Virus record (IMG/VR): IMGVR_UViG_3300020198_000009 | Span: 1 to 64,000 of that record | Origin: a virus | DNA: 64,000 bases | Reading direction: 5' to 3' (one strand) | In this document: positions 8,937-63,635 of the stretch, piece by piece | How positions within the stretch are numbered: the stretch's first letter is position 1 | How the letters are laid out: each line of letters opens with the position of its first letter | Made by a program: the position numbers and the translations under genes | Notes under the pieces: model-generated | Seen by the model: only the letters and a program-made list of their open reading frames with translations | Database searches by the model: none | Told to the model about the DNA's origin: nothing

Positions 8937-9233
8937 TTACGGGTCGCAGCGGACCATTTCGGCGGCCACCTGGTCCCGGGCGAGAGCGTCCGACGCCGCC
9001 CACTCGGGAACCCGGTTCTCCCGGACGGCCTCCTTGCAGAGGGTCTTCCGGGTCACGAAGAGCACCGCCATCTCCTCGCGGGCACAGGAATACTCGTCGT
9101 AGGCAGCCTGGGCCAGCGCCCAGGCGCCTGACGACCTGGCATCGGACTCGGCGGTTTCGTAAGCCAGGCGCGCCAGCCTGACCCACCACCAGGTCCGGTG
9201 AAATAGCGTCAAGAACTCCAGGTAGTCCTTCAC
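8937..9233 (-). CDS. Hypothetical protein
   Basis: GTG start overlapping the upstream stop (GTGA); VKDYLEFLTLFHRTWWW... Confidence 0.55.
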   Translation of the reverse strand: MKDYLEFLTLFHRTWWWVRLARLAYETAESDARSSGAWALAQAAYDEYSCAREEMAVLFVTRKTLCKEAVRENRVPEWAASDALARDQVAAEMVRCDP

Positions 9234-9640
9234 GCGCCGCGGCCCCCCCGCGGGGCCTGGTAGTGCCGCCGGCGCTCGGCCAGCTGCGCGCGGATGAGCG
9301 CGCGCAGCCGATCCGCGTGATACCCGAGCCGGTCGGCCCACCAGGCCAACGAGCCCGGGGCCGCCCCTGTGGCGCCGAGCCAGGCCCACGTCTCTCCCCG
9401 GTCGCTCCGGAGGTCGGCGATGGCCTGCCGGACGACCGCCCAGGCGATCGTCCGCTCGGCGCCGGCGGCCAGATCGAGGGGCCGGCCGACCGTGGCCCTG
9501 GCCCGGTCGAGGACCTCCATGGCCTCGACCAGGTGGGCCTGGGCGTAGTCCCGGCCCTCGGGGGTGCGGCAACGCCGCGCGGCCCGTCGCCAGAAGGCGA
9601 CCAGGCGCTCGGCGTTGCCGAGGTAGAGCAGGTCCTGCAT
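9230..9640 (-). CDS. Hypothetical protein
   Basis: RBS AAAGGAGG directly after the tRNA-like RNAs. Confidence 0.6.
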   Translation of the reverse strand: MQDLLYLGNAERLVAFWRRAARRCRTPEGRDYAQAHLVEAMEVLDRARATVGRPLDLAAGAERTIAWAVVRQAIADLRSDRGETWAWLGATGAAPGSLAWWADRLGYHADRLRALIRAQLAERRRHYQAPRGGRGA

Positions 9641-9662
9641 GTGGACCTCCTTTCGACCTTAG

Positions 9663-9740
9663 TGGAACCACCGGGACTCGAACCCGGCTCCCTCCTGTGC
9701 GCTTTGGCTTTCGGGAGGGAGGGCACCTGCGACTGGTCCC
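9663..9740 (-). ncRNA. tRNA-like RNA with alanine acceptor identity, no D-stem and no canonical anticodon loop
   Basis: GGGACCA/TGGTTCC acceptor stem (G3:U70), discriminator A73, T-arm CCGGG-TTCGAGT-CCCGG, 8-bp stem CTCCCTCC/GGAGGGAG closing an 18-nt loop. CCA not encoded. Confidence 0.7.
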
Positions 9741-9741
9741 A

Positions 9742-9806
9742 TGGTGGAGCCGGCGGGTACTGACCCCGCGTGCCAGGCTTGCGCCCGGTCGACCCTTTAC
9801 GGCCCC
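9742..9806 (-). ncRNA. Minimal tmRNA-like RNA (tRNA-like domain only, 65 nt)
   Basis: GGGGCCG TAAAGGGTCGA CCGGGC GCAA GCCTGG CAC GCGGG GTCAGTA CCCGC CGGCTCC ACCA. G3:U70, A73, encoded CCA, ssrA-type stemless D-loop ending TCGAC, P2 capped by a GNRA loop. GATAAT box 5 nt upstream. Confidence 0.78.
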
Positions 9807-9844
9807 ATGAAATTATCGCCAGGGTGGCGCCTGGACTTCCAGTG

Positions 9845-10322
9845 ATGGGGACGGGCTGCTCATACTGCCCGTCGCTCCCGGATCCCGGCTTGGTGTTTTG
9901 GGCCGCAAACCACAATCGGCCTCTTGCACCGGGAGCAAAACTTGGCGAGTGCCCGTCAGCGCTGCACGCAGTACCCCTGGAAACGGGGCAGATCCCGAAG
10001 GACCAGGACGGGTTTCTCGCCAGTATGGAGTATACCAGCCGACCCGGGGTTGGGTCAAGCTGGGGTTGCCCCTCGGCCTCCGGCCCCGGGCCGGGGGTCA
10101 TCGGACGCGACCGAAATCCCGGCGCCTCCCGTCCTCTGCGCCTGCCGGTCTATGGCTGCGCCGACGAGGACGGGAGTCGCCGAAAAGCCCTCGCGCGCTG
10201 TGTCGATGTTGTCGTTACGCGAGATGCGAGGGCCCGGGGGAGATCCCACCCGAGCGCCTGCTGCATGCTGCGCCGAGTGGGTGGGATCTCCTCGTAGCTG
10301 GCATCAGATCTCGATGCCAGCC
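9845..10322. ncRNA. Candidate large structured non-coding element (about 480 nt)
   Basis: Stems gacgggc/gcccgtc, gctcccgg/ccgggagc, tggcgag/ctcgcca, ctcccgtcctc/gaggacgggag, gccctcgc/gcgagggc, ggagatcccaccc/gggtgggatctcc, gctggcatc/gatgccagc. Confidence 0.5.
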
Positions 10323-10422
10323 TCCTCATGACTACCCCTTCCTGTCCCTCGCGGGACGGTCGCGGCGCAGTGGCGGCGGCTCGATGCCAGGCCTTGCGCC
10401 AGGTGGTGGTGGTGGGGGGGGG

Positions 10423-10782
10423 CTACTCGGCGCGGTAGGTGGGGTCCCCCGGCCTCTGGTTGCAGAGGCCCGGGGGCACCCCGGCCGCCTGCGCCACGGC
10501 CGACGCGGCCAGGGCGGCGTCCAGCGCCACCTGCGGGCCGACCGTGTCCCGCGCCACGCGGGCGGCCGCCCGCGCGGACAAACCCTTCGTGGCGGCCTCC
10601 CACGCCTGCCACGACGCCTCCTCGGCGTCGTTAGCGGCGGCGAAGGCCGCCCGTGCCGCCTCGACGAGCACTACTTGCGTCGCGCTCAGGACGATGCGCC
10701 CGTCGGGCGCTATGGTCCGGGGCCGTGGGTCGTCGAGGTGGCGGCCGGACCCGCCGCCGATGTGCTCCCAGATCCCGCTCAT
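10423..10782 (-). CDS. Hypothetical Ala-rich protein
   Basis: RBS AAAGGAGG before ATG. Confidence 0.55.
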   Translation of the reverse strand: MSGIWEHIGGGSGRHLDDPRPRTIAPDGRIVLSATQVVLVEAARAAFAAANDAEEASWQAWEAATKGLSARAAARVARDTVGPQVALDAALAASAVAQAAGVPPGLCNQRPGDPTYRAE

Positions 10783-11614: not shown

Positions 11615-11851
11615 TTTACACCTCCTGGAAAGGGAGGCCGGATGCCCAAAGGGCCGGCACCTGTCGATCGGCGCGGCCACCAAGATGGTGTAGCCGTCCG
11701 ACCTACCGGGTGCCGTTGCTCGGCCCATCTTGACGAAATGGCGGCAGCGGGGCATTGAACCCCGCTCGGGACCTTCAGACGACCGCGACACCCCGGAGGG
11801 GCTCGTTTGATCGCCTCTATGCCAGGCTGACACCCGGCATGTCCTTCAGCC

Positions 11852-11960
11852 CTCGCAGCCTGTCAGAGCCGCTTCCGCTTGCCGCTTGCTAAATAAATGA
11901 ATAACCCCTCCTAAGTAAAATTACTCGCAGCCTGTCAGAGCCGCTTCCGCTTGCCGCTTG
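11852..11960. repeat. Perfect 37-bp direct repeat x2 flanking a 35-bp AT-rich spacer (possible mini-CRISPR-like unit)
   Basis: CTCGCAGCCTGTCAGAGCCGCTTCCGCTTGCCGCTTG at 11852-11888 and 11924-11960; spacer CTAAATAAATGAATAACCCCTCCTAAGTAAAATTA. Confidence 0.9.
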
Positions 11961-27909: not shown

Positions 27910-29414
27910 CGGTACACGAAGACGAACTTGTCGTCTGCCTTGACCGGCACACGCGGGTCGAGGTAACGGAAGACGTCGTCGAGGATCAGGAACTGGGCAG
28001 TCGGCCGCAACCGCAGGCCGTTCATGAGCACCAGGGCCTGCCCGGGATCATGCGGTGGTCGGGACAGACGGTAGCCCAGCGAAGTGCCGACATCGTCCAT
28101 GCCCGCCACGTAGTAGTCGTATTCGAGCGCTCCCGCCACGAAGGCGTCCTTCCAAAAGAGCACGACGGCCTTGTCGGTATTCTTGAGATCGAAGGCCCCG
28201 TTCCAGGTGATGTGCGAATCGTCGGGGAACAGCAGGTAACGCTCGCCGGCAAACCATTGACCGCCGAAGCTGCCGTCGGCCGACAGGAACAGGAGAGACT
28301 TGTGGATCTCGGGCACGCGTTCCCTCAGGTTCCAGGTCGGCTTGCCCGCCGAAACCGACAATTCCTTGATCTTGACCCCGACCCCGACCCGCTCGGACAG
28401 AAAGCCGATGAGTTCGAGGGTCTCGCCGGCCCGCAACGCCAGATCGTCCCAGGTCAGACCCCCGAGTGTCTGCTCGAAGCCATGGCCCTGGGCATAGCCA
28501 AGACCGTTCAGGGACACCATTGCCGCATGGCGGTAGGGCGGACGATCTCCGCCCAGCGCGAAGGCGACCTGGTCGTCCTCGGCGACCGGCACGTCCAGCC
28601 GGGTCAGGAAATGCTGGGGCACCCAGAGATCGTCGCGGGTCCGGTCCAGGTAGCCCCGAGCCGGCAGCGAGCTGATCGTGAGTACCGATCCGTGATCGAA
28701 CGGCACCGCCGAGCCCACCGTGAGCCGAAACTCTCCCAGAGCCCACTGATCGGTACCCTGGCCTTCGAAGTAACGCAGGCCATCGACATGGACTCGCACG
28801 TCACCTGCCCGACTGGGCACGACCGACAGTGTAAAGGTGCGGTTGCGACCAGGCCTGAGGGCGAAACTCTGCTGGGCGCATAGCCCGGCGCTGTCGCGCG
28901 TGCGCGGGTAAACCGCCACGATGCTCGCCCCGGCGCGCAGCCGGACCGACGGGTGGGTAAACGTCAGTCGATTGCCCGCTACACGCAAGAAGCCAGCCGC
29001 CTGCGGATAACACGATCCTTCGTAGTAGAGCTCAGCCCGGTCGCCCACGGGTATCCCGTCGAGCCGGAAATCGACCTGACCGGTCGCGGTGACGACGTGA
29101 CGCTCGGCGTGCAGTTGACCGGCAGCGGTCGACTGACCCAGGACCTCGACGACCACCTGTTTGCCCGGCGGCAAGGGCGGGAGGTGCCAGGATAGCGTCG
29201 AGCCCCTGACCGAGACGTCGGGCATAAAATAGGTCTTGCGATCGACGATGGCCGTCAGAATACCGGCCGGATTCGGAGTGAATCCGAGCGCAAAGGTCGC
29301 CTGGCCTGACGTGGCCACTGTGACCGTCACGCGCTGATGCGCGAAGCCTTGGTTCTCAGCCGGGACGGGCAGCGACGCGAACGGGATGTCGGACGCCCCA
29401 CGGTTGATGGCCAT
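27906..29414 (-). CDS. Putative tail/baseplate structural protein with repeated small beta domains
   Basis: Repeated G...F.L...P.....V..NG units; tail-fibre operon. Confidence 0.55.
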   Translation of the reverse strand: MAINRGASDIPFASLPVPAENQGFAHQRVTVTVATSGQATFALGFTPNPAGILTAIVDRKTYFMPDVSVRGSTLSWHLPPLPPGKQVVVEVLGQSTAAGQLHAERHVVTATGQVDFRLDGIPVGDRAELYYEGSCYPQAAGFLRVAGNRLTFTHPSVRLRAGASIVAVYPRTRDSAGLCAQQSFALRPGRNRTFTLSVVPSRAGDVRVHVDGLRYFEGQGTDQWALGEFRLTVGSAVPFDHGSVLTISSLPARGYLDRTRDDLWVPQHFLTRLDVPVAEDDQVAFALGGDRPPYRHAAMVSLNGLGYAQGHGFEQTLGGLTWDDLALRAGETLELIGFLSERVGVGVKIKELSVSAGKPTWNLRERVPEIHKSLLFLSADGSFGGQWFAGERYLLFPDDSHITWNGAFDLKNTDKAVVLFWKDAFVAGALEYDYYVAGMDDVGTSLGYRLSRPPHDPGQALVLMNGLRLRPTAQFLILDDVFRYLDPRVPVKADDKFVFVYR

Positions 29415-33249: not shown

Positions 33250-34365
33250 TCAGGCCAGATGACCCAGGTCGGGCCGGTACTTCTCGATGATGGCGCGAAA
33301 ACGCGTCCTGGTGCGATCTATCAGCTTCTTGATGGCCGCCGGAGTCTTGCCCACCTCCAGCCCGAAACCCCGAGATCCAGCGGTCGCGTCCAGCCCGTCG
33401 GGGGTCGCAACGATTTCCGAGACCTCGCCGGCGATGTCGCGCTCGTCGAGGGGCACGGTGTGGTGATAGAGTCCGTGGAATGCCCCGAAGACGCTGCCCT
33501 CCATCGCTGACAGGTGGCTGACCAGCTGATTGAGCGATTCGACCGTCTCGTCGCTGACCAGGTACTCGACCAGATCCGAGCCGATGGGCAGATCGGTGAC
33601 CTGGGCGTAGCCGGTGTCCTCCTTCTGACTGTCGGGGGCATGGCTCACATCGGTCGGGTGAATCGACAATGCCCCGCCCAGCAGTGCCTGAATGTGAATG
33701 GCCTTGGTGGTGCCGAGCATGCGCAACTCGTCATGGAGGGCCGCGGCGCTCTCGGGATCCGGGGCCGAGGTCACCACGACGGCATTTTCTGGGATATCGT
33801 CCTCGGGGCCTATCAACAGCAGCTTGATTTCAGTGGGTTCCGGTTCTTTTTTCAGTTTTTCCGGCTGACCTTCCGGATCTTCCGGGTTTTCCAGGAATTC
33901 CGTACGACTGGGCACGAGCTTGCGGGTCCTGGCCTTCTTGGCGACCGTCACGCGCACGACCTTCCATGGGAGATCCGGGGTGAAGGTCTCGCAGGCGTGC
34001 CGGTTGAGGATCTTCTTGAGCTTCATGATGTCCTGGAAGGGCACCTTGGCGGCATAGCCCATCTCCGAGAGGTACTTGACGATTTCCTTGCGGACATGCC
34101 AACCGGCAAACGTCAGCAACCGGTAGCCCTGGGACATGTCGAAATGCCGGATTCCATGGAGGAGGCCCAGGATGGCCGACTGCTCCAGGTCCGCATGCTC
34201 GACCCAGGTCGGGGCCGTGAAGCGGTTGATCATCGTGGCGACAAAGGGCCGATGCGCCTCGATGAGCTCCTGGACGGCCCACTTGGCTGCCCGCGCATCG
34301 GGCCCCTGGGCAACGGCCAGCAGTTCGTACTCGTGCTTGGCCGTGATGACCTTGTGCGGTTTCAA
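33250..34365 (-). CDS. Phage-encoded sigma70-family factor
   Basis: Region 1.2/2: EYELL..AQ.....A..ELIEAH..FV....RF; DLEQ.A.LGLL..I..FD.SQGYRL.TFA.W.VR..I. Degenerate C-terminal region-4-like HTH. Start probably TTG 34365. Confidence 0.8.
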   Translation of the reverse strand: MKPHKVITAKHEYELLAVAQGPDARAAKWAVQELIEAHRPFVATMINRFTAPTWVEHADLEQSAILGLLHGIRHFDMSQGYRLLTFAGWHVRKEIVKYLSEMGYAAKVPFQDIMKLKKILNRHACETFTPDLPWKVVRVTVAKKARTRKLVPSRTEFLENPEDPEGQPEKLKKEPEPTEIKLLLIGPEDDIPENAVVVTSAPDPESAAALHDELRMLGTTKAIHIQALLGGALSIHPTDVSHAPDSQKEDTGYAQVTDLPIGSDLVEYLVSDETVESLNQLVSHLSAMEGSVFGAFHGLYHHTVPLDERDIAGEVSEIVATPDGLDATAGSRGFGLEVGKTPAAIKKLIDRTRTRFRAIIEKYRPDLGHLA

Positions 34366-34790
34366 GCAGCGGGACTCTTTCCGGCCTTGGCGGCCTCGTA
34401 GGCACGATCGCAACCCAGCGGCAACCCGACGTCATGCCCATGGTGGTAGCCGATCTGGGGATCGCGCCGGTAGCCGACCGCCGCCCGGGCCGGTCGCCAG
34501 GCCTCGCCCCCGAACGGCGACTGCTTGGGATAGCACAAGGTGTAGAGCACGGCCCAGAACGCTTCGAGCTGGTAGTCCGCCGGCACCTGGGGCAAGAAGC
34601 GCACGTGCTCGACCGTCATGCCGCCAGGCGCGAAGGCGAAGACGAGCTCCTCGATGGCAAAACCGCGATCCGCCAGGTCCTTGAGGGCGCATTCGATACC
34701 GATGCAAGCGTCGGCGAACTGGCCACCCCCTTCGCGCAACGCGGCCGCAATGGCCTCTTGGAGGTAGTCGGCTGCGTCGGATTCGGTCAC
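34362..34790 (-). CDS. Hypothetical protein
   Basis: Protein-like ORF coupled to the sigma gene. Confidence 0.5.
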   Translation of the reverse strand: MTESDAADYLQEAIAAALREGGGQFADACIGIECALKDLADRGFAIEELVFAFAPGGMTVEHVRFLPQVPADYQLEAFWAVLYTLCYPKQSPFGGEAWRPARAAVGYRRDPQIGYHHGHDVGLPLGCDRAYEAAKAGKSPAA

Positions 34791-50160: not shown

Positions 50161-53058
50161 ATGTCGAGCGAGACCTTCATCGAGGACGGCGAAACCGGAC
50201 GCCGCGTCATCGTCACGGACCGAAAGAAGATTGCCGAGGCGGTACTGCATCTCAAGGGCAGGCCCCTCAAGCTCGACAACTACCGGCCCTTCCATGCCAT
50301 CTACCGCACTTCGGCACAAAACCTTGTGATACAGGCGGGACGGCAAGTGTCAAAATGTGGCACCGGCGAGAACATGATCCCCATGTTCAACGGCATGCCG
50401 GCCAGGCTCGGCGCCCTCCGGCCAGGCGATAAGGTTTTGTCTCTGGCATCTGGCTACCGCCTGGTGACTGGACAGGTGAGCGACACCATCCAAGCCGGCA
50501 GGAAGCCATGCGTGCGCCTGACGACCCGCTTGGGGCACGAGCTGGAGGTCGCCCGGAGTCATCCGATTCGCGGTCTGTTCGACTACTATCCGGCGGGCGA
50601 ACTCAAGATTGGCGACCGAGTGGCGGCTGTGCGTCGCGGCGGCTCCTTCACAGACCTGAACCCCATAACGCCGACCGAGGCCATGGTGCTCGCCTACATG
50701 ATTGGCGACGGCAGCGCTCAGGGTAAGCAGAACTTCGGCTTCACGAACTCCAAACCGGAGATCTTGGCCGAGTTCCGGTCATGCTGCGCCATGCTGGGCC
50801 AGGTCGCGCCACGAGAGTACGAACGCAAGGGCTCCTTGACGCTTCGGCTCTCGCTGGCATCGGATGCCCCGGTTCGTCGTCTCCTGGAACATCAGGGTAT
50901 CTATGGCAAGACCTCGGAAACGAAGTTCATCCCAGCCGAGGTATTCGACCTCGATCGCGAGCGCACGGCGCTCTTCCTGAATCGACTCTGGGCGTGCGAT
51001 GGCCATGCCAAGCAACTCAATCCTGGGAAATATGAAATCCACTACGCCACAATCTCGAAAAAACTGGCCCATGGCGTTCAAGCGCTCCTGTGGAAGTTCG
51101 GAATCCCGGCCTCGGTATCCCGGAGTCAACCGAAAGTCTATATAGGCACCAACAAATTCGCCTACAAGGTGCGAATTGAAACCCAAGAAGGTATCCGCCG
51201 CTTCTTGACCGAGATCGGCGCTTTCATGAAGAGCGAGAGCATCCCACTTCCGGCAGCCGAGAGTAACAATAACCGCGATACCATCCCGCAGGACGTGCAA
51301 AAGCTCATCACGGCACTCTACGAGCGCGCCCTGGCCCGGGATGCCCTGTGCGGACCCGGGCGTGCGGGGCGGCCTAGGGCTAGCATCACGGATCACGGCC
51401 TGCGCGCCACCCTAAAATACCCCCCCTCGCCACGAAAGATCGCCCAATACGTCGAGTTCTTTCAGCAGATCGGGCTCGGAGACGAACCGGAAACCATTAC
51501 CCTCGAATCACTGATCAACAACGACGTGATCTGGGATAAGATTATTGCGATCGAAGACATCGGCATGCAGGATTGTTACGACATCGAAGTCGATGTTCTG
51601 CACAACTACATCCTGGGCGGCGTTGTCACCCATAACTCGACCACCCTGGGAAACTGGTCCATCACCGACGCCATCGGCGTGCCCCATTCCGAGCAGTTGA
51701 TCGTCCTGCCCTCGATCATGCAGATGCGCCGCTTCTCATCGGACAAAGTGGGAAAAATCGTCGCCACCAGCCCGCTTGTCAAGAAATGGTTCGTCGACCA
51801 CACCTGCGAGCGCGCCATCTACAAACGCAGCTTCCTCAACGGCTCGACCATGGAATTCGCCGCCATGACCCAGATGGAATCCATACGCGGCGGCGCCAAG
51901 AACCGGGTGTCGGAAGACGAAGTGCAGGACATGGACCTGGACGCGCTTGCCATAGTGGAGGAGGTGCTAAGCGGACAAGCAAGTGACAAGATAGCAATTG
52001 CCCGCACCGGCACGGCCAAGACCGTCGGCAACACGCTGGATGTGACGTTCAAGAAATCGAGCCAGTGCGAATGGATAGTGCCATGCCCAAGCGGTCACCA
52101 CAACGTCCCGAGCCCGGACAACATCGGCGATCGGGGCTTCATTTGCAAGAAATGCCGCAGCCTCTGCGACGTGCGCGGTGGCTACTGGCGCTCCATGGCG
52201 GGCCTCGACGCCGAGTGGATGGGCTTCCACATCCCCCAGATCATCCTGCCGCTCCATACCGAGGACCAAGGAAACTGGCGCAAGCTCCTGCGAAAGCGCA
52301 ACGGCGGCGTCAGCCCGGTCGTCTTTCTCAACGAGGTCATGGGCATTCCTGCCGGCTCGGGCATCACCGCCCTGACCGAAGAGGACCTGATCAAGTGCTG
52401 CGAACCGGTCTACGAGATAGACCCCCACTACTTCCGCGGCAAGGACCACGACATCGCCGTGGTATTCGGTACCTGCGACTGGGGCCTGATGGCCATCAAG
52501 AGCTTCACGATTGCCAGCATCTGGGGGATCACCAAGGCCGGGCGCATCAAGCTGCTGTTTGCCTATCGCTTCCTGGACCCCGATCCCTACAAGCAGGTCG
52601 AGCAGATCATCCGGCTCTTCACGAACGCGGGGGTCGAGCTGGTCGGCTGCGACTGGGGCATGGGCATGATCCAGAGCCGCATCATCGAGGAGCAGATGCC
52701 CCAGGTCCCGGTCCATCGCTTTATGTACGTCGGCGAGCAGCGGGCCCTGATGAGCTGGTACAAGGAGGGCAAGCTCTGGCGGGTGAACCGTACCCAGGCC
52801 ATGACCGAAGCTTTCGTCTGGATGAAGCGCCAGCGTTTCTGGTTCCCGAACTGGTCATGGTTCAAGGAATACATCGCGCCGGATATATTATGTATTTACG
52901 AAGAGGCAGTAAATCAAGTCACATTCAAGAACGATGTCATACGGTACGCACACCCCGATTCCCAGGCCGATGACGCCACTCACACCTGCGTCTACGCCCT
53001 GCTGCTCCTTTGGATCCTTTATGACCGCGGCCGTACGGAGTTCCATCTGGCAGGCTAG
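50161..53058 (+). CDS. terL: Terminase large subunit (GpA-like) interrupted by an intein
   Basis: Walker A AGRQVSK|STT, Walker B IRG....RVSEDEVQD, GTAKT, SSQ.EW...C, GFHIPQ, NEVMG, nuclease G.DWG and HPD...DD..H. Confidence 0.9.
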   Translation: MSSETFIEDGETGRRVIVTDRKKIAEAVLHLKGRPLKLDNYRPFHAIYRTSAQNLVIQAGRQVSKCGTGENMIPMFNGMPARLGALRPGDKVLSLASGYRLVTGQVSDTIQAGRKPCVRLTTRLGHELEVARSHPIRGLFDYYPAGELKIGDRVAAVRRGGSFTDLNPITPTEAMVLAYMIGDGSAQGKQNFGFTNSKPEILAEFRSCCAMLGQVAPREYERKGSLTLRLSLASDAPVRRLLEHQGIYGKTSETKFIPAEVFDLDRERTALFLNRLWACDGHAKQLNPGKYEIHYATISKKLAHGVQALLWKFGIPASVSRSQPKVYIGTNKFAYKVRIETQEGIRRFLTEIGAFMKSESIPLPAAESNNNRDTIPQDVQKLITALYERALARDALCGPGRAGRPRASITDHGLRATLKYPPSPRKIAQYVEFFQQIGLGDEPETITLESLINNDVIWDKIIAIEDIGMQDCYDIEVDVLHNYILGGVVTHNSTTLGNWSITDAIGVPHSEQLIVLPSIMQMRRFSSDKVGKIVATSPLVKKWFVDHTCERAIYKRSFLNGSTMEFAAMTQMESIRGGAKNRVSEDEVQDMDLDALAIVEEVLSGQASDKIAIARTGTAKTVGNTLDVTFKKSSQCEWIVPCPSGHHNVPSPDNIGDRGFICKKCRSLCDVRGGYWRSMAGLDAEWMGFHIPQIILPLHTEDQGNWRKLLRKRNGGVSPVVFLNEVMGIPAGSGITALTEEDLIKCCEPVYEIDPHYFRGKDHDIAVVFGTCDWGLMAIKSFTIASIWGITKAGRIKLLFAYRFLDPDPYKQVEQIIRLFTNAGVELVGCDWGMGMIQSRIIEEQMPQVPVHRFMYVGEQRALMSWYKEGKLWRVNRTQAMTEAFVWMKRQRFWFPNWSWFKEYIAPDILCIYEEAVNQVTFKNDVIRYAHPDSQADDATHTCVYALLLLWILYDRGRTEFHLAG
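50356..51636 (+). mobile_element. Intein with LAGLIDADG homing endonuclease (427 aa) in the terminase Walker A
   Basis: Begins C(GTGE), ends VVTHN before Ser; block B T..G.EL.V...HP; LAYMIGDGS and FLNRLWACDG; YDIEV..HNY. Confidence 0.92.
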
Positions 53059-59345: not shown

Positions 59346-62300
59346 ATGCGCGCGCCAGCCGAGACCCACCAGGCGATGACCCGGGCGCTGGAAGCCGGCC
59401 TCAAGCAGGTATTCCCGGTTGCGGCCGGCAACCGCATGCTCGATCTGGTCGCGGTCCATGCCCCCGACCTGCCGGATCCCCATGACTGGAACGGCCAGAA
59501 GGACGCGGTCATGGATGGTAGGACCTGGGGCAGCCCACTGCGCGCCACCCTGGCGCTCAAGGATGCACAGGGCAAGGTGCTCGACCAGAAGGCCGTGAGG
59601 CTGGCCACCATACCGGCTCCGACCAATCGCCACACGTTCATCGTCGATGGCCGGGAGTACCAGGTCAACTACCAGCGCCGGCTGAAACCCGGGATCTACA
59701 CCAAGGTCGATCGCACCGGCGCACCGGTGGCCGACTTCAACCTCGGACATGGCCGCAACTTCGCCGTCACGCTCGACCCGGAACGGAACCAGTTCCATCT
59801 GCGCCTGGGCAACGCCCACATCCCCCTGGGCCATGTCCTGGCTGGCCTGCGCGAATCGGGAGATCCCTCCCTGGGGCTGGGCAAGGCCTTCGAGCACCCG
59901 GCGGGCCCGGAGGAGACCGAGCGCGCCTTGCGGGAATTCTATGTCCAGACCCACCGCAACAAACCCATCCCTGCCGACCTGGCAGGCCTCAAGGCCGCCG
60001 TCCGCACCTGGTTCGACCACGCTACGCTCTCGCCCGAGACCACCCGGCTCACGGTCGGCGAATCCTACGGCCATGTCACCGACCAGGCGTTGCGGACTGC
60101 CGCGAGGCATGTCCTGGAAATCCACCGCGGCGATCGTCATCCGACCCACAAGGATCAGCTGGCTTACCAGGAGATCCACGGGGTCGAGGACTTCCTCAAG
60201 GAACGCCTGGTCAAGAACAAGCTGGGGCTGCACGGCCGGTTGCGCCAGACCCTCGATCGGGCCGACAAGCTCGCGGACCTCAACCTACCGGCGACCTTCG
60301 GGCCGTCAGTGCACCACTTCTTCACCCAGAGCTCGCTCTCGAACCATCCCATGCAGGTCAACCCGCTGGAAATGGCCGAGAACGCCCACAAGATCACCTC
60401 GATGGGCGAAGGCGGCATCGGAGACGCCAACGCCATCCCGATCGAGGTCAGGAACATCCATCCATCCACGTTGGGCTTCATCGACCCGGTCCGCACGCCC
60501 GACAACGCCCATGCCGGCGTGGATGTCCGCACCACCGTGCGCTCCCGCAAGGTCGGGAACCAGCTGGCGATTCCCGTCCGCGATGCCAGGACCGGCCGGG
60601 AGGTCTTCAAGACCCCTGGCGAGCTGTTCGACACGCACGTCGCCCACGACAGGGAGCCCGCCGAGAACGGCGTGGTACGCGCCATCCACCAGGGCCATGT
60701 CGTCTGGGCAAAGCCAGAGCAGATAGACTACCACCTCCCGACCGAGCACCAGTTCACGGTCAGTACGGCCCTGGTGCCCTTCATCCCCAACAGCCACGCC
60801 CACCGGGTGGCCATGGGCGCCAAGATGCTGGGCCAAGCCGTCAGTCTCGACGACCGCGAGGCGCCGATCGTGCGGACCGCCCATGCAAATACCGCGATCT
60901 CGGGCCTGTTGCCGCGCAGCCCGGTCGACGGGACCGTGGCCACGATCGTGAACGGAGCCATCAAGATCCAGGACAAGGACGGCAAGAGTCACCTCGCGCA
61001 CTATCCGCACGAGTTTCCGCTCAACGGCGGCTCGTTCCTGCATGCAGACCTGCATGTCAAGCCCGGCGACCGGGTCTCGCAAGGGCAGGTCCTCGGCGAC
61101 TTGAACTTCACCCGCGACGGCAACCTTGCACTTGGAAAAAATTTAACCGTTGCTTATCTGCCGTATCGTGGCCATAACTTCGAAGACGGCCTGGTGGTTA
61201 CCGAACAGGGTGCCCGCAAGCTTACCAGCAGCCACCTGCATACCGAAGTCGCCCTCAAGGACGGCCGCAACGTCTACGATCTCAAGCAGTTCAAGGGCCA
61301 CTTCCCCTCGACCTACACCCACGAGCAGCTCGGCAAACTCGATCCCCATGGCGTGGTACGCGTGGGCCAGGAGGTCGTCGAGGGCGACCCGCTGGTCGCG
61401 GGCCTGCGCAAGCGCGTGGTCGATCCCGAGCAGCTCATCCTGGGTAAGGCCCACAAGGGCCTCATGGAGCCCTACCGGGACGCCAGCCTGACCTGGGACA
61501 AGCCCTACGCCGGCAAGATCACGGCCGTATCCAAGACCGGCGACCAAATAAAGGTGACCATCCAGGCCAAGGCGCCGCTCCAGTTGGCCGACAAAATCTC
61601 TAATTTGTACGGCGCGAAGGGCGTCGTGACAACGATCATCCCCGACCACGAGGCGCCCCGGACAGCCAGCGGTGAGATCCCCGACGTCATCCAGAACTCG
61701 GCGGGCCTGATCAGCCGCATGAACAACGGCCAGCTCTACCACCTGACCGCCGCCAAGGCCGTCAAGGCCCTGGGGCTCGATCACATGGTCTTCCCGCAGT
61801 TCCTGGGCCAGGACGCCCACGAAGTGGTCTCGCGCCTGGCCGAAAAGGCCGGCATCGCCCCGGAAGAAGAGCTGTTCGACCCCAAGACCAATCGCAGTCT
61901 GGGTAAGGTGATGATCGGCCCGCAGTACATGCTCAAGCTCTTCAAACAAGCCGAGACCGGCTTCTCGGCGCGGGCCGGCGGGCGTTATGACGTCGATCTG
62001 CGACCGGCCAAGGGCGGCGAGGAGGGGGCCAAGTCCATCGGCTACCTCGACGTCTTCGGGTTGCTCAGTCACGGCAGCCGTGGCCTGTTGCGCCAGGCGG
62101 CGACCACCAATGCCGAATTCAACCCCGAGGTCTTGCAAGCCATATGGCGGGGCCAGCCCCTGCCGCCCCCCAGGCCCACGTTTGCCTGGCGGAAGTTCGA
62201 GGCCATGTTGCGCGGGGCGGGCGTCAACGTCACCCAGGACGGCCACAAGCTGGTCATGCTGCCGATGACCGACCAGGACACCCTGCGAGTCTCGCAGGGC

Positions 62301-63635
62301 CAGATCCGCAAACCCCTGCTGGTCAACGCCAAGGAGGACCCTCGCACCGGCCTGCCCTTCCGGCCCGAAACGGGCGGTCTGTTCGATCACGAGTCCACCG
62401 GCGGCCTGGTCGGCAACAAGTGGTCGCATATCACGTTGCCCGAGCCCGTGGTGAGCCCGCTGTTCGCCCGGCCGGCCCGCATCCTGCTCGGAATGAGCCA
62501 GCAGGCTTTCGGTGAGACGATGGCCACCGAGGGCGGGGCGGGTATCGCCAAGCGCCTGGCCGGGATCGATCCGAAGACGCGCATCGCCGAACTCGGCGAG
62601 CGGCTCAAGACGACCAGCGCGGCGGCCAAGCGCGACCAGATCCACAAGCAGCTCAAGTACCTCAAGCCGCTGGCCGCCCACGGCATCAGCCCGGCCGACG
62701 CGTACGTCGTGCGCCATGTGCCGGTCATCCCTCCCGCGATGCGGCCCATCTACCCGGACGCCGACACCGGCAAGCTGGTCAACTCGGATGCCAACCTGCT
62801 CTACCAGCACCTGCTGCTCATCGGGGATCAGCTGGCCCACCACCAGCACGAGGGCGATCCCGACACCGTGCGCGAATTGCGCCTGGGGCTGCATGACGCC
62901 CTGGCCAAGGTGCAGGGCCTCGACCCGACCACTGAATCCATGGGCAAGGGCTACGAGCCGCAGGGCTTCCTCAAGCTCATCACGGGCTCGCGCGCCAAGG
63001 AAGGCTTCTTCCAGAGTAAATTGCTCTCGCGGCGCCAGGACATCGCCGGCCGCGGGGTCATCACGCCCAATCCGGCGCTGGGTATCGACGAGCTGGGCTT
63101 GCCTGAGCCGATGGCCTGGAAGCTCTACCGCAACCATGTGGTGGGTGAGTTGACCCGGGCCGGCCTGCCGCTCGAAAGTATCGCCAAGCATGTCGAAGAG
63201 CAGACACCCCTGGCGCGCAAGGCCCTGCAAGCAACCATGGCCGACAATCCGGTGATCATGACCCGGGCGCCCAGCCTGCACCGCTTCAACCTCATGGCCT
63301 TCAAGCCGCAACTGACCAGCGGCAAGCACATCGAGGTTCCAAACCTGGTCGTCAAGGGCTTTAACGCTGACTTCGACGGTGACGCGGTCAACGTCCACAT
63401 CCCCATCACCCCGGAGGCCAAGGCCGACGCCTGGCGCGTGCTGCCATCGAAGAACCTATTCTCGACGCTCAACAAGAGCCCGATGCACACGCCCAGCCAG
63501 GAGGTCACCATGGGGCTCTGGAAGCTCGGCCAGCCCAATGGTAAGGCCACCCGGACCTTCAAGAGCCGCGCCGAAGCCATCGCCGCCTACAAGAAGGGCG
63601 ACATCGGCATCGCCGACCCGATCGAAATAGGTTGA
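59346..63635 (+). CDS. Multisubunit RNA polymerase: beta fused to the N-terminal half of beta'
   Basis: beta: FIVDGRE.....PG, NPLE..., EVRNIHP...IDPV.TP, LVPF...RV.MGAKM.GQAV, LALGKN...Y.P..G.NFED, DKI...G.KGV, SRMN.GQ, YMLKL. beta': GLFD, HI.L, VPVIPP..RP, D.N.LY, K.G.F...LL.RR.D..GR.VI, RAPSLHR, FNADFDGD, PSQE...GL. Confidence 0.95.
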   Translation: MRAPAETHQAMTRALEAGLKQVFPVAAGNRMLDLVAVHAPDLPDPHDWNGQKDAVMDGRTWGSPLRATLALKDAQGKVLDQKAVRLATIPAPTNRHTFIVDGREYQVNYQRRLKPGIYTKVDRTGAPVADFNLGHGRNFAVTLDPERNQFHLRLGNAHIPLGHVLAGLRESGDPSLGLGKAFEHPAGPEETERALREFYVQTHRNKPIPADLAGLKAAVRTWFDHATLSPETTRLTVGESYGHVTDQALRTAARHVLEIHRGDRHPTHKDQLAYQEIHGVEDFLKERLVKNKLGLHGRLRQTLDRADKLADLNLPATFGPSVHHFFTQSSLSNHPMQVNPLEMAENAHKITSMGEGGIGDANAIPIEVRNIHPSTLGFIDPVRTPDNAHAGVDVRTTVRSRKVGNQLAIPVRDARTGREVFKTPGELFDTHVAHDREPAENGVVRAIHQGHVVWAKPEQIDYHLPTEHQFTVSTALVPFIPNSHAHRVAMGAKMLGQAVSLDDREAPIVRTAHANTAISGLLPRSPVDGTVATIVNGAIKIQDKDGKSHLAHYPHEFPLNGGSFLHADLHVKPGDRVSQGQVLGDLNFTRDGNLALGKNLTVAYLPYRGHNFEDGLVVTEQGARKLTSSHLHTEVALKDGRNVYDLKQFKGHFPSTYTHEQLGKLDPHGVVRVGQEVVEGDPLVAGLRKRVVDPEQLILGKAHKGLMEPYRDASLTWDKPYAGKITAVSKTGDQIKVTIQAKAPLQLADKISNLYGAKGVVTTIIPDHEAPRTASGEIPDVIQNSAGLISRMNNGQLYHLTAAKAVKALGLDHMVFPQFLGQDAHEVVSRLAEKAGIAPEEELFDPKTNRSLGKVMIGPQYMLKLFKQAETGFSARAGGRYDVDLRPAKGGEEGAKSIGYLDVFGLLSHGSRGLLRQAATTNAEFNPEVLQAIWRGQPLPPPRPTFAWRKFEAMLRGAGVNVTQDGHKLVMLPMTDQDTLRVSQGQIRKPLLVNAKEDPRTGLPFRPETGGLFDHESTGGLVGNKWSHITLPEPVVSPLFARPARILLGMSQQAFGETMATEGGAGIAKRLAGIDPKTRIAELGERLKTTSAAAKRDQIHKQLKYLKPLAAHGISPADAYVVRHVPVIPPAMRPIYPDADTGKLVNSDANLLYQHLLLIGDQLAHHQHEGDPDTVRELRLGLHDALAKVQGLDPTTESMGKGYEPQGFLKLITGSRAKEGFFQSKLLSRRQDIAGRGVITPNPALGIDELGLPEPMAWKLYRNHVVGELTRAGLPLESIAKHVEEQTPLARKALQATMADNPVIMTRAPSLHRFNLMAFKPQLTSGKHIEVPNLVVKGFNADFDGDAVNVHIPITPEAKADAWRVLPSKNLFSTLNKSPMHTPSQEVTMGLWKLGQPNGKATRTFKSRAEAIAAYKKGDIGIADPIEIG

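Follow-up and report, generated by a model that had tools for sequence, protein, structure and literature searches.

Two abutting, tag-less predicted mini-tmRNA genes of different subclasses in a large uncultured lake-water phage

The window analysed here, which is the whole stretch of 64,000 nucleotides, covers the first 64 kb of an IMG/VR virus record of 80,429 bp, whose estimated completeness is about 39% and whose GC content is about 65%. On its minus strand lies a locus that, as judged from sequence and predicted fold, consists of two abutting genes for tag-less mini-tmRNAs of different subclasses, called here elements 1 and 2. The features of the locus, from the promoter downstream, are:

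10029-10058, minus strand: sigma-70-type promoter, TTGACC-18 nt-TATACT with TG before the -10 box (consensus scan)
9807-10021, minus strand: leader of about 215 nt from the promoter to element 1, of presumed extent (sequence)
9742-9806, minus strand: element 1, putative mini-tmRNA of the short class with the tRNA-like domain (TLD) only, 65 nt (covariance model R1, 47.9 bits; Rfam RF00023, 29.5 bits; RNAfold)
9741, minus strand: single base (U) that separates the CCA of element 1 from G1 of element 2
9660-9740, minus strand: element 2, putative mini-tmRNA of the loop subclass, 77 nt plus an ACUA tail (R1, 34.0 bits; covariance model R2, 68.6 bits; loop identity; fold)
9230-9659, minus strand: downstream gene for the 136-aa protein P0001 (GGAGG at 9646-9650, ATG at 9638-9640)

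The window also encodes a baseplate-J/wedge protein and a Dam-type methylase. The large terminase (50161-53058, plus strand), which has a gpA ATPase domain, is split by an intein that contains a homing-endonuclease domain of the LAGLIDADG type. A chain of 1429 amino acids (59346-63635, plus strand) has signatures of RNA polymerase beta (Rpb2 domains 3 and 6) and beta' (Rpb1 domain 2) and is a predicted fused beta-beta' phage RNA polymerase subunit. Sigma-70 region 2 is found in a 387-aa protein (33250-34413, minus strand), so that a sigma-like factor, like the RNA polymerase, is probably supplied by the phage itself. The record is taken as that of a large phage because of its baseplate gene, intein-bearing terminase, own RNA polymerase and sigma-70-like protein; the phage is a large, orphan, myovirus-like lineage, uncultured and from lake water.

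Identical copies of the phage sequence are present in several lake-water metagenome runs, and contigs from four lake-water DNA runs agree with zero variants, so they provide no covariation data; no RNA run is found among the sequencing runs listed as holding the locus. In two lake-water runs (X3 and X4), the depth rises from 2-5 on the flanks to 40-50 at window positions 9718-9791, a region that extends from P2 of element 1 to nucleotide 23 of element 2. This excess indicates that a more abundant organism or phage carries sequence resembling this junction region (at least 80% alike). No relatives of the baseplate protein or of P0001 were found in IMG/VR, no homologues of P0001 among 5.8 billion proteins, and no blastn match of positions 9400-10200 among 50,697 phage records. 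Queries with the 3' half as an exact sequence and with a strict pattern modelled on DS6A matched mycobacteriophage DS6A alone. A metagenome scan for a mini-tmRNA followed after 0-3 nt by a GGG...UUCGAGU T-arm returned 13 loci and zero relatives of this phage, and those 13 loci are tRNA-tRNA, tmRNA-tRNA or mini-tmRNA-tRNA pairs.

Element 1 occurs a single time in the window, with 0 occurrences expected in shuffled sequences. Its acceptor stem, GGGGCCG/CGGCUCC, has 7 bp with G3:U70, and is followed by A73 and an encoded CCA. The D-loop is UAAAGGGUCGA and the D-stem is absent. P2 is formed by CCGGGC/GCCUGG, which makes 6 bp including one G.U and is capped by GCAA, and CAC precedes the T-arm GCGGG-GUCAGUA-CCCGC. 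The minimum-energy structure from RNAfold is this fold, with all four helices intact. The original prediction had described this 65-nt minus-strand element at 9742-9806, and all the features that it listed are present in the sequence and in the RNAfold structure.

The bacterial tmRNA model RF00023 aligns to element 1 end to end, over model positions 1-374, with 312 internal positions deleted. As had been anticipated, only the 5' and 3' ends are aligned, to model positions 1-25 and 338-374. The score of 29.5 bits (E 5.7e-10) was obtained at permissive thresholds and the gathering score of the model is 47 bits; at gathering thresholds Rfam reports nothing over the window. The covariance model R1, which was built from 31 other phage mini-tmRNAs with the window excluded, matches element 1 over its full length with 47.9 bits (E 2e-9), at the low end of the family scores (42-98 bits), and this match is far beyond chance. 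Both models support, at the level of sequence, the proposed identity of element 1 as a mini-tmRNA encoded by a phage, with the tRNA-like domain retained and a tetraloop in place of the mRNA-like domain. The element has no tag frame and no pseudoknots, as predicted.

The T-loop GUCAGUA of element 1 is unique among the 99 family sequences in the matches listed, 95 of which have UUCRAUU. U55 and C56 are kept, as is the GG of the D-loop, and positions 54 and 58 are both G. The canonical U54-A58 pair is therefore broken, and element 1 may be structurally impaired at the elbow. The tRNA-like domain had been called intact, which holds for the acceptor, P2 and T-stem helices but not for this T-loop. 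A comparable NUCRNUA variant, AUCGUUA, is found in one other locus (L057). The junction of element 1 reads UAAAGGGUCGAC ... GGCAC, with CAC rather than GAC before the T-stem, and CAC is also found in DS6A and about 10 other family sequences among the matches listed. By its sequence, element 1 is grouped with the short members of the family (L047, L071, L093, L102, L107, L108 and L118; 64-68 nt), in which a small loop closes P2.

The element at 9742-9806 had been taken as a single one, but a second mini-tmRNA, overlooked at that time and better conserved, begins 1 nt after its CCA. The acceptor stem of element 2, GGGACCA/UGGUUCC, also has 7 bp with G3:U70, and is followed by A73 and the tail CUA, so CCA is not encoded. 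The D-loop is GUCGCAGGUGCC. P2, formed by CUCCCUCCCG and CAGGAGGGAG, spans 10 positions with one C.A, the other helix pairs being unbroken, and encloses the conserved 14-nt loop AAAGCCAAAGCGCA (9681-9694, minus strand). The T-arm CCGGG-UUCGAGU-CCCGG is canonical. Element 2 keeps GG and lacks the UCGAC...GAC junction and the linker; Watson-Crick pairs flush on the T-stem replace the G.A/A.G pairs. Model R1 gives element 2 34.0 bits, which is above its non-family hits in tRNA-rich loci (at most 28 bits) and below family members (at least 42 bits).

The resemblance of AAAGCCAAAGCGCA to the loops of a few family members prompted a scan of IMG/VR for AAAGCCNANGCGCA followed by a T-arm. The scan returned 16 loci, and 12 of them, on contigs of 32-64% GC, are distinct full mini-tmRNAs. 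Every one of the 12 has G3:U70 in an acceptor stem of 7 bp, a feature on which the pattern placed no constraint. Model R2, made of these 12 sequences with the window left out, gives element 2 68.6 bits (E 6e-20), family members outside the training set 44-64 bits and element 1 38.3 bits, and its best other scores in tRNA-rich loci, presumably tRNA genes, are at most 34.5 bits. Judged by these matches, element 2 is a clear member of the loop-bearing subclass (L020, L100 and L147-L160). The 14-nt loop AAAGCCNANGCGCA is invariant in these loci, which lie on phage contigs of about 32-65% GC, and the very AAAGCCAAAGCGCA of element 2 is found in L147, L149, L152 and L157-L159, on contigs of 32-52% GC. 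Such strict conservation of an apical loop suggests that it has a sequence-specific partner. In L148, L153, L155 and L160, the frame GCC GAA GCG CAC GGC GGG reaches an in-frame UGA; a role of this frame as a tag was rejected, since the other members of the subclass have no stop. Binding of SmpB by element 2 is open to doubt because the UCGAC...GAC junction, which is invariant in tmRNA TLDs, is absent.

Other repeated or tRNA-like sequences were also seen. A third tRNA-like match (11736-11834, minus strand), with the T-arm CGGGG-UUCAAUG-CCCCG, was rejected: R1 gives it 17.5 bits, the Rfam tRNA and tmRNA models do not back it, and it overlaps the start of an ORF. A 37-nt unit, CAAGCGGCAAGCGGAAGCGGCTCTGACAGGCTGCGAG, is found twice in exact copies on the minus strand between 11852 and 11960 (at 11924-11960 and 11852-11888); the copies flank an AT-rich stretch with GGAGG and lie within a hairpin-rich gap of 460 nt after the baseplate gene, a short way upstream of this third tRNA-like match. 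The repeat CTGGCATCGAG (at 10310, 10380 and, with one mismatch, 11815) is not above chance, being equalled in 12 of 100 shuffles.

The family to which these elements are compared comes from a scan of IMG/VR with the loose pattern GGGGNNG...TCGAC...AC-T-arm-CTCCAC, in which at most 38 nt are allowed in between. At least 119 loci were found; their distinct sequences number at least 98 and are 64-88 nt long when two bases beyond the match are included. Among the matches listed, G3:U70 is present in 99 of 99 sequences, where it is partly imposed by the pattern (GGGG...CTCC), and A73 is likewise strict. Acceptor positions 5 and 6, which are free in the pattern, are paired in 98 and 99 of these 99 sequences, with 4-5 pair types, and the equally free T-stem positions 1-4 are paired in all 99. 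At E ≤ 0.001, R1 finds exactly one match per locus over 100 loci and none of their tRNA genes; its non-family scores in tRNA-rich loci, presumably from tRNA genes, are at most 28 bits. In the 83 distinct rows of the model-fitted alignment, 98.4% of the cells are paired. Covariation scores 0.652, compared with 0.126 for shuffled alignments (0 of 500 reach 0.652) and 0.05-0.08 with slid partners, and both sides change in 14 of 21 pairs. The mini-tmRNA family is a real structured RNA. Homologues with covarying stems, proposed as a check, are found in the IMG/VR family; no relatives of this phage lineage were found.

ARAGORN misses 117 of 120 mini-tmRNA copies, and all three copies that were scored with the Rfam tmRNA model fall below the gathering score. 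About a quarter of the family in the matches listed lies in or beside tRNA arrays, and several members have a tRNA 1-7 nt after them, a setting that fits tRNA-type processing. In L140-L145 AGGGA comes straight after the CCA of the mini-tmRNA, and ATG follows 7-9 nt later, so that the 3' end of the RNA abuts the ribosome-binding site of the next gene. The T-loops of these six are UUUGAAU or UCCGAUU, which means that the T-loop varies where the search pattern leaves it free. The unannotated IMG/VR family (L004-L123 and L140-L160) has the same architecture and invariant nucleotides as the elements described here. Elsewhere in the family, however, a direct neighbour is an ordinary tRNA, whereas here it is a second mini-tmRNA. 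Across 129 loci (about 1.1 Mb) there was no second case of two abutting copies; two-copy contigs are limited to L142, with copies 3.5 kb apart, and one contig with the separate loci L034 and L054.

RNAs of this kind had been reported before, contrary to the novelty implied by the original prediction. Mycobacteriophage DS6A is listed as carrying a "TLD only" tmRNA (Hudson, Lau and Williams 2014, in a passage of PMC4131195), which corresponds to tmID 11587, or Phage__Mycobacterium.9, in the tmRNA Website. A passage of PMC4131195, citing Mao et al. 2009, states that a DS6A-like TLD molecule, whether chargeable or not, strongly inhibits tmRNA, perhaps by titration of SmpB, and this inhibition is reported on expression in E. 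coli in passages of both PMC4131195 and PMC11915505. The latter, in the part that repeats the DS6A account, adds CDS-less tmRNA genes of about 65 bp from Mallomonadaceae plastids. The two roles that had been proposed for element 1, an SmpB decoy and a tag-less ribosome-entry RNA, are already discussed for the DS6A RNA in passages of the same two sources (PMC4131195, PMC11915505).

The DS6A gene was located at positions 28478-28560 of JN698994 (L002), with 43.2 bits for RF00023, below the gathering score. It has no feature in the GenBank record JN698994 and sits between gp33 and gp34 (DNA polymerase III), 11 nt past the stop codon of gp33. The RNAs of DS6A and element 1 are both phage-encoded and TLD-only and have the identical acceptor GGGGCCG/CGGCUCC; they also have in common GGTCGACCG, GGCACGCG, CGCCGGCTCCAC, GGUCGACCG and CGCCGGCUCCAC, the GGCAC junction (A.C, not A.G) and a similar 5' flank. 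The tail ACUA of DS6A is that of element 2. The DS6A RNA has 83 nt, an inner AAAACCGCACGCGG loop and a canonical UUCGAUU T-loop, whereas element 1 has 65 nt, a bare GCAA cap and an aberrant T-loop. DS6A is a 60-kb temperate siphovirus with a single copy, while the present large myovirus-like phage has two abutting genes of different subclasses.

Bacterial ssrA, as represented by RF00023, shares with element 1 the acceptor, the GG-UCGAC of the D-loop, P2a, the T-arm and ACCA. It differs by its mRNA-like domain, which takes 312 of the 374 model positions and comprises the resume codon, the tag frame and four pseudoknots; without this domain, element 1 cannot act as a template. The organellar CDS-less tmRNAs, which are found in jakobid and oomycete mitochondria and in Mallomonadaceae plastids, are likewise of about 65 nt, with a tRNA-like domain and no tag frame. 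They co-occur with nucleus-encoded SmpB and are presumed to help in rescue, whereas the gene described here is viral and is presumed to act on the system of a host. The kind is already published and common in phage metagenomes; distinctive of this locus are the abutting of two subclasses and the unusual T-loop of element 1.

The promoter TTGACC-18-TATACT at 10058-10029 (minus strand) is the sole promoter-like site in the region 9000-10700, with 10 of 12 matches to the consensus and 0.0 expected in shuffles, and it is likely the start of a transcript that contains both RNAs. A promoter of its own had been assigned to element 1 on the basis of a GATAAT box. This box lies at 9812-9817, 5 nt before G1, and has no -35 partner; the likely promoter is the strong one about 215 nt upstream. 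No Rfam family was found in the leader (9807-10021), and the fold z-score for 9641-10022 is only -1.6. A possible ORF of 16 codons, MSSPSPSLEVQAPPWR, is found in the leader (9813-9863, minus strand), with its stop TAA inside the GATAAT box and a weak Shine-Dalgarno sequence, GGGAG, 11 nt upstream. The downstream gene, which probably shares the transcript with both elements, has its ATG 20 nt past the end of element 2 (ORF 9230-9640). The gene has a GC3 of 0.95, and its 136-aa product belongs to no known family and gave no usable lead in a protein-atlas look-up.

The most likely function of both RNAs would be interference with trans-translation by the SmpB-tmRNA system of the host. According to this interpretation, both elements are probably transcribed from the promoter 10058-10029 as the mRNA leader of the ORF 9230-9640 and would be excised like tRNAs, by RNase P at each G1 and by 3' trimming, with CCA added to element 2. 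The host AlaRS would then charge both with alanine by way of G3:U70 and A73. The two RNAs would compete with the host tmRNA for SmpB and for stalled ribosomes, since they keep the part recognised by SmpB and EF-Tu and have no resume codon. Trans-translation and ssrA tagging would be inhibited or diverted during the infection, as for the DS6A-like RNA in E. coli. An SmpB gene was not found in the 80-kb record (about 39% complete). By analogy with the known systems, we favour on balance this joint reading, in which two tandem mini-tmRNAs are processed, alanylated and compete with the host tmRNA. A more speculative extension, to which we give little credence, is that the two unlike RNAs have a division of labour, element 1 acting through its SmpB-type junction and element 2 docking another conserved host partner through AAAGCCAAAGCGCA, and that they jointly reprogram ribosome rescue, for example by tag-less release of phage nascent chains.

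Inhibition is not the only outcome that would follow from the same structural evidence. The alanyl-mini-tmRNAs could enter stalled ribosomes with SmpB and EF-Tu, take over the nascent chain and release it untagged, by drop-off and peptidyl-tRNA hydrolase, so that phage proteins made from broken mRNAs escape ssrA proteolysis and the ribosomes are freed. The alanine identity set (G3:U70 and A73), which would be needless for a pure SmpB sponge, is strict in both elements and in the 99 family sequences of the matches listed, although in these G3:U70 is partly imposed by the search pattern. The case is made in a passage of PMC11915505 that mitochondrial tmRNAs remain of help with incomplete mRNAs although they lack a CDS. 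However, inhibition by the TLD-like molecule is independent of its chargeability, as stated in a passage of PMC4131195, and no mechanism of release is known. We regard this account as rather unlikely, although it comes next after inhibition of the host system.

One or both elements might instead be decaying relics of a captured tmRNA end that have no function now, element 1 being the likelier relic. The unique T-loop of element 1 among the 99 sequences of the matches listed and its low-end score (47.9 bits in a range of 42-98) point in this direction, as do the loss of the UCGAC/GAC junction in element 2 and the fact that no relatives of the lineage support purifying selection. Decay is nevertheless hard to reconcile with the helices of both elements, in which one C.A is the sole broken pair, or with a 14-nt loop in element 2 that is identical in distant phages. 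Element 1, moreover, keeps U55, C56 and the D-loop GG, has a T-loop similar to that of L057, and the locus lies directly behind a strong promoter. We consider it improbable that the elements are relics.

Still less probable is that the tRNA-like folds are mainly signals for processing or stability of the downstream mRNA, either as RNase P sites or as a 5' structure that protects the ORF 9230-9640, and do not act in trans. The distance of 20 nt from the end of element 2 to the next ATG would suit such a role, and so would L140-L145, where CCA is directly followed by the Shine-Dalgarno sequence and ATG. Among the matches listed, however, an ORF start preceded by a Shine-Dalgarno sequence lies within 30 nt in only 6 of 98 cases and within 100 nt in 21 of 98, many family members sit in tRNA arrays, and the strict tmRNA-specific features and the 14-nt loop would be left unexplained.

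Two readings in which the locus is one molecule are very unlikely. ARAGORN, from which hits to the ends alone had been expected, calls instead a 145-nt tmRNA at 9662-9806 with an implausible tag of 31 residues, and GGGGCCG of element 1 does pair with UGGUUCC of element 2 by means of G.U. In both elements, though, the tag frame crosses the acceptor and T stems; the mini-tmRNA models match each half completely and over its full length, and the minimum-energy fold of the 145 nt has two domains. The tags of ssrA usually end in alanine-rich, non-polar residues, and the 31-residue frame does not. A permuted two-piece tmRNA is suggested by RF04321 at 9678-9771, with 30.5 bits (E 2.8e-4), which is below the gathering score of 47 bits. 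It would need the acceptor GGAGCCG/CGGCUCC, in which A3-U70 takes the place of the alanine identity pair; a coding piece, an ORF and a P2 partner are all absent downstream, in agreement with the earlier statement that the order is not permuted.

An attP or integration remnant made of copied 3' ends of host ssrA or tRNA genes, which might be thought of because tmRNA and tRNA genes are often integration sites and DS6A is temperate and encodes an integrase, is hardly credible here: both elements have the 5' halves that att fragments lack, their 3' ends of 28 nt (element 1) and 25 nt (element 2) have 0 exact matches in 185,579 species-representative genomes, and no tyrosine integrase (PF00589) was found in the 80-kb record (about 39% complete). 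A tRNA-Ala, including forms without a D-stem, was also rejected, as ARAGORN finds no tRNA in the window and the P2 loops have 4 nt in element 1 and 14 nt in element 2, not the 7 nt with an alanine anticodon of an anticodon arm.

The locus adds a mini-tmRNA case from a large orphan phage of lake water, and among about 130 loci examined no other has two different subclasses directly side by side. Through element 2, a subclass whose 14-nt loop is invariant came to notice. This copy by itself leaves the overall picture unchanged. DS6A is the one phage for which a TLD-only tmRNA is in print, yet such RNAs are frequent in uncultured phages. If these RNAs disable or divert trans-translation, phages would widely be using them against a quality-control system that nearly all bacteria possess.
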